Of a stretch of DNA of 49,635 bases, positions 819 to 11,607 are shown one piece after another (position 1 is the first letter of the stretch; the number at the start of each line of letters is the position of its first letter). This DNA comes from Deltaproteobacteria bacterium RIFOXYA12_FULL_61_11 (GTDB taxonomy: Bacteria > Bdellovibrionota_F > JAHFAK01 > YA12-FULL-61-11), in NCBI GenBank assembly GCA_001799195.1, contig MGSU01000091.1, positions 1 through 49,635 on the forward strand, in the 5' to 3' direction. The notes under the pieces are model-generated. The model searched no databases. It worked only from the letters and a program-made list of their open reading frames with translations, and was not told the origin of the DNA. The position numbers and the translations under genes are program-made.

Positions 819-1730
819 TCAACCTTGGCGGCGGCGGCGAACGCCGGTCACAACCAAACCGACCGCGAGCAGACCAAACAGCAAGCCGGCAACCGCCGCC
901 TGGCTCTCGCTGCCGACCGTGGTCGCACACGTTCCGCGAGAACGCACCACGTAGTTGCAGCGATTGTAACGGCAATAGACCCGTGGGTCCCCGTGCCAAG
1001 CCCTGCACTCGCTCGGGTGCCATGCACACCATGTGTAATAGATCCGGTCGGAATAGCACCAACCGTAACCCCAGTTGTAGGGCGACCATACACACGTGGT
1101 AGTGAGGTACCCATATGGCCACACCGTCATCATTTCCCACGGATAATAGTGGTAGATCGAATACCAGCTATAGTCATAGTAGTCGTACCAGTAATAAGGG
1201 TCTGACCAATAATCATAGCCATAGTATTCGTTGTACCAGGTGTCGCCGTAGTCCCAGTCACTGTCGTACCAATAATCGTCATCCCAGTCCGAATAGAATT
1301 CGCCGGTCTCGCTGTTCCAGTCGTCATCACTCCAACCATCGTCGTAATCACTGTCGCCCCAGTCAGAGTCGCCGCCGTCATCCCAGTCGCCGTCGCCCCA
1401 ATCGGAGTCACCACCATCATCACCCCAATCGGAGTCGCCGCCATCATCCCAGCCGCCGTCACCCCAATCCGAGTCACCACTATCGCCCCAATCGGAGTCG
1501 CCCCAATCATCCCCGTCGCCCCAATCAGAGCCGCCGTCATCCCAGCCGCCATCGCCCCAGTCGGAGCCACCGTCGTCCCAGCCGCTATCGCCCCAATCAT
1601 CCCCGTCGCCCCAATCGGAGCCACCATCGTCCCAGCCGCCGTCGCCCCAATCATCCTGAGCCAAGGCCGAGCCGCCAAACACCAGGGCAAGGCTTGCCAC
1701 CATCATCAACCACGATTGACGCCAACCCAT
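819..1730 (-). CDS. Secreted protein with Asp/Gly/Trp repeats, Tyr/Trp-rich region and MYXO-CTERM-like anchor
   Basis: RBS GGAGG, signal peptide ending ALA|Q, DWGD/GWDD repeats, Y/W-rich then Cys-containing segment, C-terminal GTC...TM...RRRR. Confidence 0.85.
   Translation of the reverse strand: MGWRQSWLMMVASLALVFGGSALAQDDWGDGGWDDGGSDWGDGDDWGDSGWDDGGSDWGDGGWDDGGSDWGDGDDWGDSDWGDSGDSDWGDGGWDDGGDSDWGDDGGDSDWGDGDWDDGGDSDWGDSDYDDGWSDDDWNSETGEFYSDWDDDYWYDSDWDYGDTWYNEYYGYDYWSDPYYWYDYYDYSWYSIYHYYPWEMMTVWPYGYLTTTCVWSPYNWGYGWCYSDRIYYTWCAWHPSECRAWHGDPRVYCRYNRCNYVVRSRGTCATTVGSESQAAVAGLLFGLLAVGLVVTGVRRRRQG
1320..1655 (-). repeat. Coding tandem repeats DWGDGGWDDGGS / DSDWGD
   Basis: Visible in both DNA and translation. 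Confidence 0.9.
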
Positions 1731-2139
1731 ACATCCTCCTTCCTTCGTTATCGTCGTAGTTCGACGTTACCTTCACACTGCGTGGCCCACTATCAAATTG
1801 CGAGCCAGTTAATAAACAACACCCGCGATATCTTTCAAAGAACCAATATCACTACATTTATTTTTATCATCTACACTAACTGCCGCTCTATCGATATCAT
1901 CGCCGTCAACATTCGGCGCCATTCCGACACCACCAGCGCCCAAGGCCACGTACTTTCAGCAGGATGCGGCCGCCGCATGGTTGCATCTCGACACCAATCA
2001 GGGATAGGTGCAGGGAGGAGCGGCCGAAACCACTCCTCCCTGGCTCCTCCTTTTTCCTTCTTCCAGGAACGTATCCCGGCCTCCCGTGAAAGGAGACTAC
2101 GAAGAAGTCCTCAGCGGCCCAGGGGACCGCTCTCGTTCG

Positions 2140-2895
2140 TCAGAAGTTCGCGGTGATCTTGCCGTCCGGGGTGAACATCTCCTGCATGCGCAGCTCGGGC
2201 ATCGCTTGCTCGGGGATGTTGTGCTGATCCCGAATGAAGCTCCTGAGCTTGTTGTAACCGAGGGTGATGGCACCCAGGCGGAAATGCAGGTCTTCAAGCG
2301 CGGTTTTGCTCGGCTTGAGCGAAATCATGGTCATCTCGTTGCGCGGGATGTTTTCGAAATCGAATTTGTCCTGGTCCTTGGCCCTGAGGATGAAGCGAGC
2401 CACTTCGGCCCTGCGGGTGAAGTCGAACAGGAAGTTGTCGTAGTAGAAAGGTCCATTGTGCTTTTGCACGGCTTCCTTCAAATTGGGCTTACCCGAAGGA
2501 GAGACCCCCGAGGTCTGCTTGGCCCGCTGCCACTGGATATTGCCCTGGCTGTAGCCCACCACGACCAACCCGCAGTACATACCGATCTTTCCGCGCTGTT
2601 CGGGAGTGTGCGCTCCGAATTTCTCTTTCATGGCCGTAGCGCACCGCATGAAGAGTTTCTCGTAGGTGTCACAGATGACCTCGTGGGCCTGGGTCCCGAA
2701 TTGGCTCCCGGCGCCGAGATAAACATCCGCCTCTTCGACCAACCTGACACACGTGCCGTTCTGGGAGGAATTAGTAAAACTCCCCGCCATGTCCCGTAGG
2801 TCGAGATCACTCTCGTCCAAGCCAAAGCCTCCGCTCGCGCTCGCCGTGCCAAAGGTCAAGGCCAAGCCCAACAATGCGATGATCATACGTTTCAT
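2140..2895 (-). CDS. Hypothetical secreted protein
   Basis: GGAGG RBS before MKRMII at 2895, signal peptide ending ASA; no family recognised. Confidence 0.75.
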   Translation of the reverse strand: MKRMIIALLGLALTFGTASASGGFGLDESDLDLRDMAGSFTNSSQNGTCVRLVEEADVYLGAGSQFGTQAHEVICDTYEKLFMRCATAMKEKFGAHTPEQRGKIGMYCGLVVVGYSQGNIQWQRAKQTSGVSPSGKPNLKEAVQKHNGPFYYDNFLFDFTRRAEVARFILRAKDQDKFDFENIPRNEMTMISLKPSKTALEDLHFRLGAITLGYNKLRSFIRDQHNIPEQAMPELRMQEMFTPDGKITANF

Positions 2896-8089: not shown

Positions 8090-8383
8090 AGTCGTCGCGC
8101 CCTTCACCACCAAATACTTCTGGATCTTGGAATAGGTCGCTTGCCCGATTCCCTTCACGTTGAGGATTTCCTCAGGATTTTCGAAAGGCTTGACCTTTCG
8201 GTAATCGACGATCTGCTGAGCTTTCTTAGGACCAATGTTGGGCAAGAGTACCAATTCTTCGGTATTCGCGGTGTTGATGTTGATCTGCCCGGTCAGCGAC
8301 ACGGCAGCAAGCGCGGTGTTGCACAGCAGGGCTGCCACAAGGGCCGCCAGAATCATTCTCGAGGTAGTACGGTGGTAATTCAT
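8081..8383 (-). CDS. comEA: ComEA-family helix-hairpin-helix DNA-binding protein
   Basis: Signal peptide, then ININTANTEELVLLPNIGPKKAQQIVDYR...VKGIG; RBS AAGGAG before ATG 8383. Confidence 0.88.
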   Translation of the reverse strand: MNYHRTTSRMILAALVAALLCNTALAAVSLTGQININTANTEELVLLPNIGPKKAQQIVDYRKVKPFENPEEILNVKGIGQATYSKIQKYLVVKGATTLR

Positions 8384-8399
8384 CTCGTGCTCCTTGTTA

Positions 8400-8576
8400 T
8401 TATTGATTTTTGTTGGCCTTGCGAACATGTAAGCGGCCGTTCACCGGCAACGCGTTCAGGGAAATGGTCAAGGACTCATCCTTGTTGACAAAGGCGATAC
8501 CCACCCTGACCCACAGACTCTTCTCGCCACCATCGCGTTCCACAATGGTGTAGACCTCGAAATAGTTACCATCCAT
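8400..8576 (-). CDS. Small conserved-looking protein (58 aa), possible ssDNA-binding fold
   Basis: RBS AGGAGG; MDGNYFEVYTIVER...WVRVGIAFVNKDESLTISLNALPVNGRLHVR; directly upstream of comEA. Confidence 0.75.
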   Translation of the reverse strand: MDGNYFEVYTIVERDGGEKSLWVRVGIAFVNKDESLTISLNALPVNGRLHVRKANKNQ

Positions 8577-8645
8577 CGGCGGTTTCCTCCTGCCTGTCGT
8601 GATCAACCATCCTTGGCGGGTGGCCGACCTCATACTCAGCCTTAA

Positions 8646-8661
8646 CGCAAAGCGAATGCCA
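8646..8661 (-). promoter_or_regulatory. sigma54 (-24/-12) promoter for the small-protein/comEA operon
   Basis: Minus strand TGGCATTCGCTTTGCG with exact GG-N10-GC spacing. Confidence 0.7.
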
Positions 8662-8712
8662 TAAAATTCAATAAGAATATCAATGAGGATTTCGGAAGAC
8701 TTCCCTGCAGGT

Positions 8713-8770
8713 CTCCGATTTCCGGAGACTTACTCTCCGGAAATCGGTCAGTGGCTCCGATTTTCGGTCA
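8713..8770. promoter_or_regulatory. Putative upstream activator sites (three CCG-N5-CGG boxes)
   Basis: Perfect 14-bp inverted repeat ccgatttccggaga-cttac-tctccggaaatcgg (8715..8747) plus a third copy ctccgattttcggtca. Confidence 0.55.
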
Positions 8771-8841
8771 GTTCACCGCCAGGAGAACGTGCTTCACGCT
8801 CCCGAGGTCAATCCACGGAATACAGACAACGGCTCTCTTAG

Positions 8842-8861
8842 CGGCAGGTAATCGCCTGTCG
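8842..8861 (-). terminator. Hairpin downstream of the peptide ORF, possible terminator
   Basis: cggcaggt-aatc-gcctgtcg, imperfect stem, no clear U-tract. Confidence 0.3.
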
Positions 8862-8904
8862 TACTATTGATAACAATCAGTTGTGGAAATTGTGGTAGCC
8901 GAAC

Positions 8905-8991
8905 TCAGCCGCGCTCGTCGGTGAACGGACACTTTGCCAGGGCCTTACCTTTCTTCGTCGTGGTCAGCTTGCGAATCATTGGCTTGCTCAT
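8905..8991 (-). CDS. Putative RiPP precursor peptide, 28 aa, MSKPMIRKLTTTKKGKALAKCPFTDERG
   Basis: GAGGAG RBS 8 nt before ATG; starts 30 nt after the rSAM stop; Lys-rich leader-like part and a single C-terminal CX3D motif. Confidence 0.7.
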   Translation of the reverse strand: MSKPMIRKLTTTKKGKALAKCPFTDERG

Positions 8992-9020
8992 GTCGAAGTC
9001 TCCTCACGGTTCATGCCGGA

Positions 9021-10442
9021 TCAATACCATGTCGTGGGAGAAAAGTAAAGACCTCGCGAAGGAATCTCCCCTGTGGACTGCTCTCGTCTGAGTTGCCAAC
9101 AAAACAACGACAGTTCTGCTAATTCTCTGAAATACTGACAGGTATCAGAGTCCTTACCCCCCCGTACGCCGCAACGTACCCGATTGACGAAACGGCAGCC
9201 ACCCCAACACAATGACTTGATCCAACAATTCTTACAGACTGCCGAACGCGCGTTACTCACAAGCGTTGTCCGTCCCTCATGCGTGGGTTGCCATCCGCTC
9301 CGCACCGAGCCTAGGTTCAGTTCGACCTGCTCAGTGAATCGATGGCATGGAAACAGGTCCCCTTCGCTTCCTATCGCTAGGTATCCTCTCCCTGCCGAAC
9401 AAAAATCAGGTAGTGTTTCTGCCGTATCCAGTCGCTCGATAAAAGTCCCCAAATTGCCGATATTCCAGGGCTCGATTCCTCCGAACGCTGATGGCCCCTG
9501 TACGAGCATGCTCCTAAGCTGCCGGACGAGTTCGCTCAGTACTGCCGAATATCTGGCTCCAGGACACGCGGGACTGAAGGTCGCTCTTCGAACTCCACAC
9601 CCATACAACCAGGTGAGAGACGCCCCCAGGTCGAAATGATCCTCCACCAAGGTACTGCGCACCAAGACCCGTTCGGGTCCAAGCGCGGAGAGCAGCAGCG
9701 CCAATCCTCTCGTGGTTTCCTCGCTGCTCCCGCGCCCTTGGGCAGGCCAGCGTCGATGCCGATCGTGAATCTCGGGCAGACAATCGAGACTAACGGTGAC
9801 TCTGAGGTCGAGTGCCGCCAGCCTCGCGGCGATCTCGACATCGACCAGCGTGGCATTGGTGGTCAAGGCCCAGTGCACCTCCTGATCGGCCATCCCCTCT
9901 ATCAGACGTTCCATACCTGCAAGGTTGAGGAGTGGTTCTCCGCCGAACAGAGAGATCGTGGCTCCCGGCTGTAATATCGGACGCCCCTTCGGGTCCCGTC
10001 CGCGCAACCACTGCACCACAGAATCCACCGTGTCCAACGGCATCAATCCACGCGCTCTGCCATAACTTCCTTGCTGTGCATAGCAGTATGAACAGCGCAA
10101 GTTACAATCCCGAGCCAGAATTACCGCTACCGCAGACAAACCGGCTTCTCGACTCGGCCGCGGAGCATTGCCTGAGAGGAGTTGATCAAGCAAGGCTCCC
10201 TGCGAATCGTTGCCGACCGTGTTCATGTCCAACCGGGAGGTGCCACGCCCGAGTTCTTTACAATCCCGAGCAGTAGATTCATCGAGTTCATAGAGTTCCA
10301 GCGTCCTTGTGGCGAACAAGAAACTGCGCCCCCTGACGGAAAAGAGGTGGAACAGTTGTCCTCTCCACGTGGAGGTGCCCGTCTTTCCCTCGGTTCTCAC
10401 GCTCTTCCTTGCCGAGCACAACTCATCGCGAGGTTTCGCCAC
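9021..10442 (-). CDS. Radical SAM/SPASM peptide maturase with N-terminal RRE-like domain (CteB/PapB/anSME-like)
   Basis: CNLRCSYC, FGGEPLL, TTNAT; SPASM C-SAG...G..FPCH...CKNCW...CWGGC...C; N-terminal FHLFSVRGRSFLF...ELYELDE; exact start uncertain. Confidence 0.9.
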   Translation of the reverse strand: MAKPRDELCSARKSVRTEGKTGTSTWRGQLFHLFSVRGRSFLFATRTLELYELDESTARDCKELGRGTSRLDMNTVGNDSQGALLDQLLSGNAPRPSREAGLSAVAVILARDCNLRCSYCYAQQGSYGRARGLMPLDTVDSVVQWLRGRDPKGRPILQPGATISLFGGEPLLNLAGMERLIEGMADQEVHWALTTNATLVDVEIAARLAALDLRVTVSLDCLPEIHDRHRRWPAQGRGSSEETTRGLALLLSALGPERVLVRSTLVEDHFDLGASLTWLYGCGVRRATFSPACPGARYSAVLSELVRQLRSMLVQGPSAFGGIEPWNIGNLGTFIERLDTAETLPDFCSAGRGYLAIGSEGDLFPCHRFTEQVELNLGSVRSGWQPTHEGRTTLVSNARSAVCKNCWIKSLCWGGCRFVNRVRCGVRGGKDSDTCQYFRELAELSLFCWQLRREQSTGEIPSRGLYFSPTTWY

Positions 10443-11607
10443 GCATGGCGGGGTCTTCGGGAATGCCCATCGAGAGTGGAAGCACTTCGTTGATCAATCC
10501 TTCCCCTTCAGGCGAAGGCAACGCGGTAAGGAGTTGTTCGAAATCTTTCACTCGTCGGTGAAGATTTTCCAGGTCAACAGCGGCAACAGGGTCTCGTGCG
10601 AAAAAACGGCCGATCTCGGTCCAATCGTCCTTGACCCCTTCGGCGATTGCCTGCCGGCGGTAACGATCCAACTCTTCTCGCCAGAACTGTACCTCCTGCT
10701 GCAGTCGCACCGCTTGGGACCGGTCAGTGAGAAGTCCTTGTGCAGCATTCGCCCGTAAGATCAGCTTGCCGAAATACCTACCGCGGGTGCCCGCCTCGAG
10801 GACGAACATCCCATCGTGCAGCAAGGGCACATCGAGTTTCCTCTCCCCCGTGGCATTGACGATCAGAATGGGGATCCCGGCGAGATTCGCAGGCCGTTCC
10901 AGATGGTCGAGTTCATCGGCCGAGAGACCGGAGAGCAGGATGACCACATCGCACGGCCCTCCGAGGGGGAGAGCATTGAGTGCTTCTTGAGGCGATGAAA
11001 CCAGGTACTGCTCCGGGAGCAGGGTTCCCGGAGAGAGCAAACCTGTCAGGGCTACAGAAAAGGGTCCGAGCTTGACTCGACGCACTGCAACCCAGGGTGA
11101 GGGACCGGGATGCTTGCGCAGGAGGTTGGCGCAGACGAGCGGCAAAGCCGAAGCCTCGAGCAGAGGCATGTAGTTGATGAGATCGAAAGGCCCGGGAAGC
11201 AAGGCGTCGAGAGCAAGGGGACGGAGTTGGTTCAACACTCGCTCGGCTTGGGTTAGATAGACCTTCTCTTCTCCAACGGGAATGAGTCGGGTCTTGAGTA
11301 AAGTATTGCCGGTTTCGACAAGGAGCGTGGGTCGTACGGCGCGTTCGCGTTTGATCACCGTCGCTCGCCTCGTCAAACCTCCGAGGTGGTCAGTCATGCA
11401 ACCGCAAGCCTCGAGTTCCCCCCAGAGGTTGGTCCCGTATAAGAGCACCGGAGCTTCGCTCGCTGCCTCGAGCACACTCGACCAGAAAAGCAGGGCCGGC
11501 AACAGCAGCTGGAGCCAGCTACCCCAGCGGTGCCTCCCACCAAGTTGTTGCCCTCTTCGATCAGCGGCCGAATCGCTCAAGGTGCACCTCACGTTGCTTA
11601 ACCCCAT
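10423..11607 (-). CDS. UshA/5'-nucleotidase-like (metallophosphoesterase-fold) exported protein with CGC motif and coiled-coil insert
   Basis: Hydrophobic signal, NLWGELEACGC...LGGLTRRAT, LLVETGN, LPLVCANL, AGTRGRYFGKL. Confidence 0.65.
   Translation of the reverse strand: MGLSNVRCTLSDSAADRRGQQLGGRHRWGSWLQLLLPALLFWSSVLEAASEAPVLLYGTNLWGELEACGCMTDHLGGLTRRATVIKRERAVRPTLLVETGNTLLKTRLIPVGEEKVYLTQAERVLNQLRPLALDALLPGPFDLINYMPLLEASALPLVCANLLRKHPGPSPWVAVRRVKLGPFSVALTGLLSPGTLLPEQYLVSSPQEALNALPLGGPCDVVILLSGLSADELDHLERPANLAGIPILIVNATGERKLDVPLLHDGMFVLEAGTRGRYFGKLILRANAAQGLLTDRSQAVRLQQEVQFWREELDRYRRQAIAEGVKDDWTEIGRFFARDPVAAVDLENLHRRVKDFEQLLTALPSPEGEGLINEVLPLSMGIPEDPAMRGETSR

Follow-up and report, generated by a model that had tools for sequence, protein, structure and literature searches.

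The DNA considered here (the window) is the 49,635-nucleotide contig MGSU01000091.1 of Deltaproteobacteria bacterium RIFOXYA12_FULL_61_11 (assembly GCA_001799195.1), and our subject is a pair of minus-strand genes within it: a radical S-adenosylmethionine (rSAM) enzyme with a SPASM domain and, directly behind it, a small open reading frame (ORF) that may encode the substrate of this enzyme (Table 1). The enzyme ORF codes for 473 amino acids (aa) when read from the GTG at 10442, and ends in the TGA at 9023-9021. The same protein is present in public collections (P0001) in a 459-aa form, which starts from the GTG at 10400, behind AAGGAAG. The latter start is the more likely one, and places the beginning of the enzyme 22 nt after the stop codon of the upstream gene, in place of a 20-nt overlap. 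The small ORF consists of 28 codons between the ATG at 8991-8989 and the TGA at 8907-8905, and its translation is MSKPMIRKLTTTKKGKALAKCPFTDERG. The initial annotation of this region had described a GAGGAG-led ORF 30 nt past the rSAM stop codon; the ORF and the Shine-Dalgarno (SD) sequence are both in place, and the gap is 29 nt.

Table 1. Features of the rSAM locus and its surroundings, in window coordinates
Feature	Position	Strand	Basis or remark
Radical SAM/SPASM enzyme, thioether-forming (PapB/QhpD/SCIFF/nif11) group	9021..10442	-	ORF, NCBIfam, Pfam, CteB match, Cys set
N-terminal ~100 residues of the enzyme, abbreviated RRE-like (leader-binding) domain, by homology	10101..10400	-	nif11 model, profile vs CteB
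Shine-Dalgarno sequence GAGGAG	9000..9005	-	8-nt spacer to the ATG of the small ORF
Candidate precursor, 28-codon ORF	8905..8991	-	Position, SD, codon score, motif frequency
Perfect 14-bp hairpin, 5-nt loop, no U tract	8714..8746	-	Unique in the genome, 160 nt past the small ORF
57-aa ORF, MDGNYFEVYTIVE...	8400-8576	-	AGGAGG, codon score 0.49-0.60, no Cys
UshA-like exported protein, upstream gene	10423..11607	-	NF041198 5e-29, below cut-off; stop codon 10425-10423

The sole cysteine of the small ORF, Cys21, opens the putative core CPFTDERG, in which it forms a CX3D motif, C21-P-F-T-D25; Thr24, Asp25 and Glu26 follow one another, and Thr24 and Glu26 could serve as alternative acceptors of a cross-link. 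The putative leader, residues 1-20, is basic. From stop to stop, the frame has 32 codons with no start upstream of the ATG; it is closed four codons upstream of that ATG, and hence there is no longer version of the small ORF. The idea that the ORF is a part of a frameshifted longer gene is rejected on two counts: this closure, and the fact that the only minus-strand ORFs of at least 20 aa from there to the next gene are two that overlap the small ORF.

There are no orthologues and conservation is unusable as evidence, so we measured instead how rare such an ORF is. We scanned the interval from -10 to +60 nt around the ends of 3199 ORFs of at least 300 aa in the same genome, looking for ATG-started ORFs that are 20-60 aa long and do not share their DNA with a longer ORF. 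A small ORF follows 82 of the 3199 long ones, and an SD core is also present in six rows of this list, which represent five distinct cases, the ORF studied here included; of the remaining four, two have the look of ordinary genes cut down to an N-terminal fragment. Intergenic ORFs in general were also counted, and an SD core precedes 137 of the 3052 that are 20-60 aa long. The codon score of the small ORF under a whole-genome model is 0.396 bits/codon, compared to 0.50 +/- 0.33 for 28-codon windows of real genes, and only 2.8% of the spurious small ORFs, 6456 in all, score as high. Because the GC content of the contig is 53.8%, the 8th lowest of 172 contigs of at least 10 kb (genome mean 60.6%, standard deviation 2.8), we built a local codon model, retrained on ten low-GC contigs with 85 ORFs. 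With this model the small ORF scores 0.30, as against 0.35 +/- 0.25 for real windows (37th percentile of these); 5.4% of 575 spurious ORFs attain that value, and the frame of the small ORF is the best of six. Finally, of 11051 ORFs with a length of 24-34 aa, 47 have a CX3D motif among their ten C-terminal residues, a count made post hoc. Position, SD, codon usage and motif together make a chance ORF unlikely, and the first three of these favour translation of the small ORF, though they do not demonstrate it.

The enzyme matches the Radical_SAM and Fer4_12 domains of Pfam. Its top match in NCBIfam is the PapB family NF047865 (4.6e-54, 183.9 bits against a curated cut-off of 340; residues 102-425 on positions 2-325 of a 330-position model), and there are matches to nif11-type maturases (TIGR04064, 1.1e-48, 166.1 bits, cut-off 518.7), QhpD (TIGR03906, 9.5e-39, 133.3 bits, cut-off 453) and SCIFF maturases (TIGR03974, 1.2e-32, 113.3 bits, cut-off 425), as well as to the ScfB-related orphan class, CcpM and the geopeptide maturase. 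The SPASM domain model TIGR04085 is matched above its threshold (46.8 bits, cut-off 27). The top match in the Protein Data Bank is CteB (5wgg; 2.2e-26, residues 98-417). The nearest database proteins are themselves members of known families, with P0054 scoring above the QhpD cut-off and P0002 above that of the SCIFF maturases. The kinship to makers of cysteine thioethers, proposed initially, is thus borne out by the top NCBIfam match, the top structural match and the nearest relatives alike. By sequence, the enzyme belongs in the thioether-forming (ranthisynthase) group, and the curated thresholds do not make it a member of the PapB, SCIFF, QhpD or nif11 families.

All cysteines expected of such an enzyme are in place. 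In an alignment of 45 sequences, the enzyme among them, the CX3CX2C motif (C99, C103 and C106 in the numbering of P0001) and seven SPASM cysteines (C334, C352, C389, C392, C398, C402 and C421) are invariant; the full SPASM set that had been noted earlier is therefore confirmed, with ten cluster cysteines in invariant columns. The enzyme retains the common residue in all 22 invariant columns of this alignment. In front of the radical SAM domain, the nif11-maturase model aligns residues 31-256 of the enzyme with model positions 4-229. A profile made from the 45-sequence alignment matches residues 5-452 of CteB (1.4e-152), and therefore includes the N-terminal leader-binding domain of the latter. 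Three strands and two helices are present at the N-terminus of the enzyme in an alignment of 66 homologues. By homology only, this part of the protein appears to be an abbreviated, RRE-like domain. The RRE (RiPP recognition element) is a PqqD-like winged helix with three strands and three helices that bind the leader, where RiPP stands for a peptide made by ribosomes and modified after translation.

Gene layout, catalytic cysteines, family kinship and the gene-like character of the small ORF are direct observations. The arrangement, in which the enzyme is followed after 29 nt by an ORF with GAGGAG and an 8-nt spacer, is typical of RiPP pairs. We propose, with a probability of about one half, that the locus is a minimal two-gene module, made of an enzyme and its 28-aa substrate, with a one-ring product of the ranthipeptide type. 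The 28-aa product of the small ORF would be the substrate of the adjoining radical SAM/SPASM enzyme, the short N-terminal RRE-like domain of which would hold the basic residues 1 to about 20 as a strand. Cys21 would then reach the auxiliary Fe-S cluster that sits in the SPASM domain, and the 5'-deoxyadenosyl radical would take a side-chain hydrogen from a nearby acceptor, most likely at the beta-carbon of Asp25, or else at the gamma-carbon of Glu26 or at Thr24. The outcome would be a single Cys-to-carbon thioether ring and a mass change of -2 Da. This mechanism is proposed because Cys21 is the sole cysteine and is followed by Thr24, Asp25 and Glu26, and because of the chemistry of the relatives, on which leader binding, reaction type and choice of acceptor are all modelled. 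The fit of a single CX3D motif to PapB chemistry had been pointed out before, and agrees with a published one-motif PapB substrate linked between Cys19 and Asp23 (PMC9413430; published systems are cited throughout from excerpts of the papers concerned).

Leader, core and acceptor being read in this manner, the precise chemistry can still be debated. The peptide may be the substrate, yet carry another modification: Cys21 might be joined to Thr24, to Glu26 or to the residue at the C-terminus, the bond might go to an alpha-carbon (sactionine), or the change might be other than a thioether. The enzyme is equally distant from all characterized families and falls below every cut-off, and Thr24, Asp25 and Glu26 adjoin one another; moreover, CteB joins Cys to Thr and NxxcB joins Cys to Asn, according to the excerpts of PMC8326336, and PapB is able to link Cys to a C-terminal residue (PMC12373016). 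On the other hand, PapB is the best-scoring family and the spacing in the peptide is exactly its native CX3D, whereas the sactisynthase models give far weaker matches (RumMC 2.1e-17, StsB 2.8e-17). A different chemistry on the same peptide is improbable in our estimation, and a Cys21-Asp25 thioether is the most likely version of the two-gene proposal.

The peptide appears, from the searches made, to fall outside every described precursor family. Its exact sequence is not in the protein collections, it has no match in NCBIfam or Pfam, and its own genome contains no second copy. A resemblance of its leader to SCIFF leaders had been suggested; the SCIFF peptide model TIGR03973 (cut-off 50 bits) finds no match to it even at E<=10, which lends the suggestion no support. 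For predicted complexes of the enzyme (45-row alignment) with the 28-aa peptide, the scores were 0.02 and 0.02, the mark being 0.32; these values were obtained with no controls and for a partner of fewer than 30 residues, which is outside the calibration of the method, and they speak neither for nor against the pairing.

The enzyme is a singleton: when 5.8 billion proteins were searched with a word-based method, the one match above 33% identity was the same protein, in a cluster of three sequences. An exhaustive HMMER search of 1.84 billion representatives returned 13422 matches at E<=0.001, of which 59 reach E<=1e-30. Its best match in 60 sampled genomes is 25% identical. Only three of these 60 belong to the same class as the host, their FtsK proteins being 43-44% identical to the one encoded here, and no shared neighbours of the locus were seen in these three; the host lineage is barely sampled. 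The genome of the host itself has 13 matches to the rSAM query, on contigs C338, C341, C262 and others, including two tandem rSAM/SPASM genes at 15127-17195 of C338.

A number of facts weigh against the two-gene proposal, which rests on a single locus, no other sequenced organism having a similar pair. We collected 68 loci of enzyme homologues (17 from genomes, 22 from metagenomes and 29 from sampled genomes, all at most 35% identical to the enzyme), the majority of which turned out to be QhpD-type operons with QhpG. A related peptide was found in none of these 68 distant loci (best tblastn E-value 0.86). The key check put forward with the initial annotation was that a small ORF should be conserved next to rSAM homologues; none of the 68 loci lends it support, and it lacks orthologues to draw on, 36% identity being the highest value for any relative. 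Near 41 loci with a stronger rSAM match, there is one small ORF with a terminal C-x3-D/E, an 18-aa ORF that starts with GTG. When 400 other genomes were searched in six frames, only chance-level matches came up, in 10 of them (E 0.06-0.5), and none of the best nine, fetched as loci, is beside an rSAM gene.

Other facts of the same tendency concern the two genes themselves. The enzyme is below the curated cut-off of every family. The N-terminal RRE-like segment that had been annotated does align with the domain of the relatives, but its helical part is shorter than theirs in the 66-homologue alignment, and Pfam has no match in the first 100 residues of the enzyme even at E<=10. As for the small ORF, the genome-wide base rates may be drawn in part from another organism, given the GC content of the contig. 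No RNA run is listed among the 14 metagenome runs, from groundwater and soil, that contain this DNA. No strain variation over the locus is seen in the four runs that were compared, which makes any signal of selection unreadable: contigs from these runs are identical over the enzyme and the small ORF wherever they cover them, and the only differences, at positions 8389 and 8580 in one run, are outside both. What stands of the minimal one-ring Cys-Asp ranthipeptide proposed at the outset is the enzyme group, the quality of the ORF and the fit of CX3D; no conserved partner was found beside the distant homologues, and the RRE-like part is abbreviated.

The best non-self HMMER match to the enzyme has 36% identity and 169 bits, compared to 1060 bits for the self-match; its terminal branch is the longest in a tree of 66 homologues (2.15, median 1.0), and its codon usage is atypical, with 0.09-0.12 bits/codon against 0.32-0.49 for the neighbour genes. 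These figures likewise count against a working pair: the enzyme could be decaying or recently transferred, in which case the locus would be a remnant, consisting of an enzyme with no working partner and a leftover ORF. The shortened N-terminal domain and the failure to find relatives in related genomes would suit such an account. At the same time, the 473-codon frame is unbroken, all family-invariant residues are kept, the ten cluster cysteines among them, and several groundwater and soil runs have yielded contigs with the identical sequence. We regard a remnant as very unlikely, and return to the proposal of a functional enzyme and substrate.

The neighbours of the pair bear on the question of what the enzyme acts upon. 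By NCBIfam and Pfam, they are a gene for FtsK and one for a UshA-like protein on the upstream side and, downstream, the hairpin, the 57-aa ORF and a gene for a ComEA-like protein, with housekeeping genes further off; no protease or exporter gene is adjacent, as had been stated initially. In the absence of such genes, the product may remain intracellular, or general peptidases may trim it. The UshA-like protein has a signal-like hydrophobic segment, and ACGC at the place where members of its family elsewhere often have an in-frame TGA (selenocysteine). Its gene is possibly co-transcribed with the rSAM gene; any functional link to the rSAM pair is hypothetical. One TGA is found inside the match at many UshA-like family loci of other genomes.

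Since QhpD and CrpC act on proteins, the UshA-like protein was tested as a partner. The small ORF might be untranslated or encode an unrelated protein, and the enzyme might be an orphan maturase of a protein or peptide encoded elsewhere, for example of the UshA-like protein. Protein substrates of thioether-forming rSAM/SPASM enzymes are indeed known, i.e., QhpC for QhpD (PMC8326336) and CrpA for CrpC (PMC13692751), and the enzyme matches the NCBIfam 'orphan maturase' class NF040492 at 2.2e-29. The UshA-like gene stops 22 nt short of the likely rSAM start, and overlaps the rSAM gene by 20 nt if the latter starts at 10442; the ACGCMTD segment of the UshA-like protein has Cys near Asp, and PapB tolerates CXnD with n=0-6 (PMC9413430). 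Besides, a 28-codon ORF with no homologue anywhere could always be due to chance. These points are opposed by the phyletic evidence: an rSAM homologue is found in the 1.5-kb flanks of 0 of 30 UshA-like family loci in other genomes, and a UshA-like gene in 0 of the 68 rSAM-homologue loci. The UshA-like protein is not cysteine-rich, with 5 Cys in 394 aa. As for the small ORF, its SD, its spacing, its codon usage and its terminal CX3D would each be out of the ordinary if the ORF were due to chance. Nor did known types of substrate turn up in the same genome, which is 87% complete: the Nif11 leader TIGR03798 was not found there; the SCIFF peptide was not found, in a search that gave no match in control genomes either; and QhpC (PF08992) was not found, in a search the control of which matched nowhere. 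An orphan maturase with another substrate is a less likely alternative, although one that should be kept in mind, to the enzyme acting on the adjoining 28-aa peptide.

A bolder version of the two-gene proposal would make the pair the founder of a new lineage, with a precursor family of its own and a one-ring peptide that has no dedicated cleavage or export and serves as an intracellular cofactor or regulator. PQQ (pyrroloquinoline quinone) and mycofactocin are peptide-derived cofactors and provide a model for the cofactor role. In such a lineage, the peptide might work with the co-oriented exported UshA-like protein, a member of the Cys/Sec redox family. We think this extension decidedly improbable, and the plain two-gene module, a variation on established chemistry, is preferred to it.

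On the downstream side, the hairpin at 8714-8746 may be the end of the transcription unit or an operator. A scan for promoters and terminators gave nothing at the locus and did not call this hairpin a terminator, and Rfam has nothing in the interval 8300-9200. A promoter-like stretch, TTGATA...TATGGC, comes after the hairpin and ahead of the 57-aa ORF, which itself sits between the hairpin and the ComEA-like gene. The 57-aa ORF, searched in a 77-aa form, belongs to no Pfam or NCBIfam family. Strong SD sites are also found at neighbour genes, such as the AGGAGG before the 57-aa ORF. GC content varies along the contig, which may be an island or a case of mis-binning: it drops to 0.45-0.49 at 42-48 kb and is 0.62, after a jump, at 48-49.5 kb. 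The codon usage of the rSAM gene is atypical even within its own contig.

Some of the homologue loci fetched are worth noting in their own right. At one of them (L004), a 39-aa ORF at 1376-1495 (+), with only two cysteines and a weak match to the SCIFF model (8.1e-05, below cut-off), lies directly before a SCIFF-type maturase at 1507-2763 (+), which scores 400.7 against a cut-off of 425. This pair looks like a reduced-cysteine variant of SCIFF. In eight QhpD-like loci (L033, L038, L036, L039, L042, L049, L066 and L067), the gene order is a recurring one: first comes a protein of about 500 aa, next a protein of 725-816 aa, then the rSAM enzyme and last a QhpG-type flavin monooxygenase. The 725-816-aa protein in L038 has a weak GoxA-like match, and no separate small QhpC-like gene is evident in loci of the L033 and L038 type. 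These may be quinoprotein systems in which the cross-linked segment is within the large protein.

What is new in the window is an enzyme that has diverged to an extreme degree, a candidate precursor that is very small and has a single motif, and the bare two-gene layout. The proposed chemistry and logic are established ones, single-link ranthipeptides and a one-motif PapB substrate being already known, and 3421 clusters for sacti- and ranthipeptides have been predicted (PMC10288494). The remark that the present peptide is much smaller than the known precursors overstated its novelty, as the one-link NxxcA and CteA are in print (PMC8326336). If the proposal is true, the one-motif PapB substrate made by engineering would have an equivalent in nature, and the pair would be the smallest ranthipeptide-type system so far, with one enzyme, one peptide of 28 residues and one ring. 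It comes from a groundwater lineage that has hardly been sampled, and it would add to the sequence diversity known for these enzymes. Peptide macrocyclization could profit from a thioether cyclase that is compact and very divergent and works with a short leader. Even then, our understanding of such systems would be unchanged, and specialists in this class of enzymes would hardly be surprised. The pair is a reasonable candidate for expression testing.

Among the characterized systems, the closest parallel is PapB with its substrate PapA (freyrasin, Paenibacillus polymyxa). In CX3D/E motifs, PapB connects Cys with Asp at the beta-carbon or with Glu at the gamma-carbon; natural PapA has six such motifs, but PapB also accepts a synthetic PapA with a single motif, in which the link is C19-D23, and tolerates CXnD with n = 0-6 (PMC9413430). 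The present enzyme has PapB as its best NCBIfam match and shares with it the rSAM domain and the full set of SPASM cysteines; its putative substrate shares Cys-X3-Asp, and the link in one-motif PapA is close in position to Cys21-Asp25 (PMC9413430). The differences are the score, 183.9 bits where 340 are needed, the single motif instead of six, a leader in which no resemblance to a known precursor family could be detected, and a cross-link that is here predicted. CteB, which modifies CteA (SCIFF, thermocellin; 5wgg and 5why), is the best relative with a solved structure, and the family profile covers the whole of it, RRE included. In that structure the CteA leader is bound as a strand on the RRE and Cys21 sits at the open iron of the auxiliary cluster; CteA receives one Cys-Thr link, and the sole cysteine of the peptide discussed here is likewise residue 21 (PMC8326336). 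Unlike CteB, the enzyme reaches 113 of the 425 bits required of a SCIFF maturase, and the peptide falls outside the SCIFF model and has one cysteine instead of six. The SCIFF-like locus L004 also differs in gene order, the small ORF being upstream of the enzyme, whereas here the enzyme comes first.

QhpD, of quinohemoprotein amine dehydrogenase maturation, makes both Cys-Asp and Cys-Glu thioethers (PMC8326336). QhpD types are among the nearest relatives and account for most of the fetched loci, but the enzyme scores 133 against 453 bits, and no QhpC or QhpG adjoins it. The substrate of QhpD is an enzyme subunit of about 100 aa, as opposed to the 28-aa peptide at this locus. NxxcB and NxxcA, from Streptococcus orisratti, belong to a streptococcal quorum-type cluster. 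They can be compared with the present pair by description, as an example of a one-ring product of this enzyme class: NxxcA has a single thioether between Cys23 and Asn20 (PMC8326336), the acceptor thus preceding the cysteine and being Asn, unlike in our peptide. CrpC of Methanococcus voltae is an RRE-rSAM-SPASM enzyme of an 'orphan' family, which installs ranthionine links at C-X-X-Q/D motifs of CrpA, the product of a neighbour gene (PMC13692751). It resembles the present enzyme in its rSAM-SPASM architecture, with an RRE where the latter has an RRE-like segment, and in being encoded beside the gene of its substrate, which is a putative one in the present case, but CrpA is described as a large cysteine-rich repeat protein, and the CrpC family TIGR04463 is not among the best 25 NCBIfam matches of our enzyme. 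By analogy with these systems, the locus would work most like PapB with PapA and like the one-link CteA and NxxcA.

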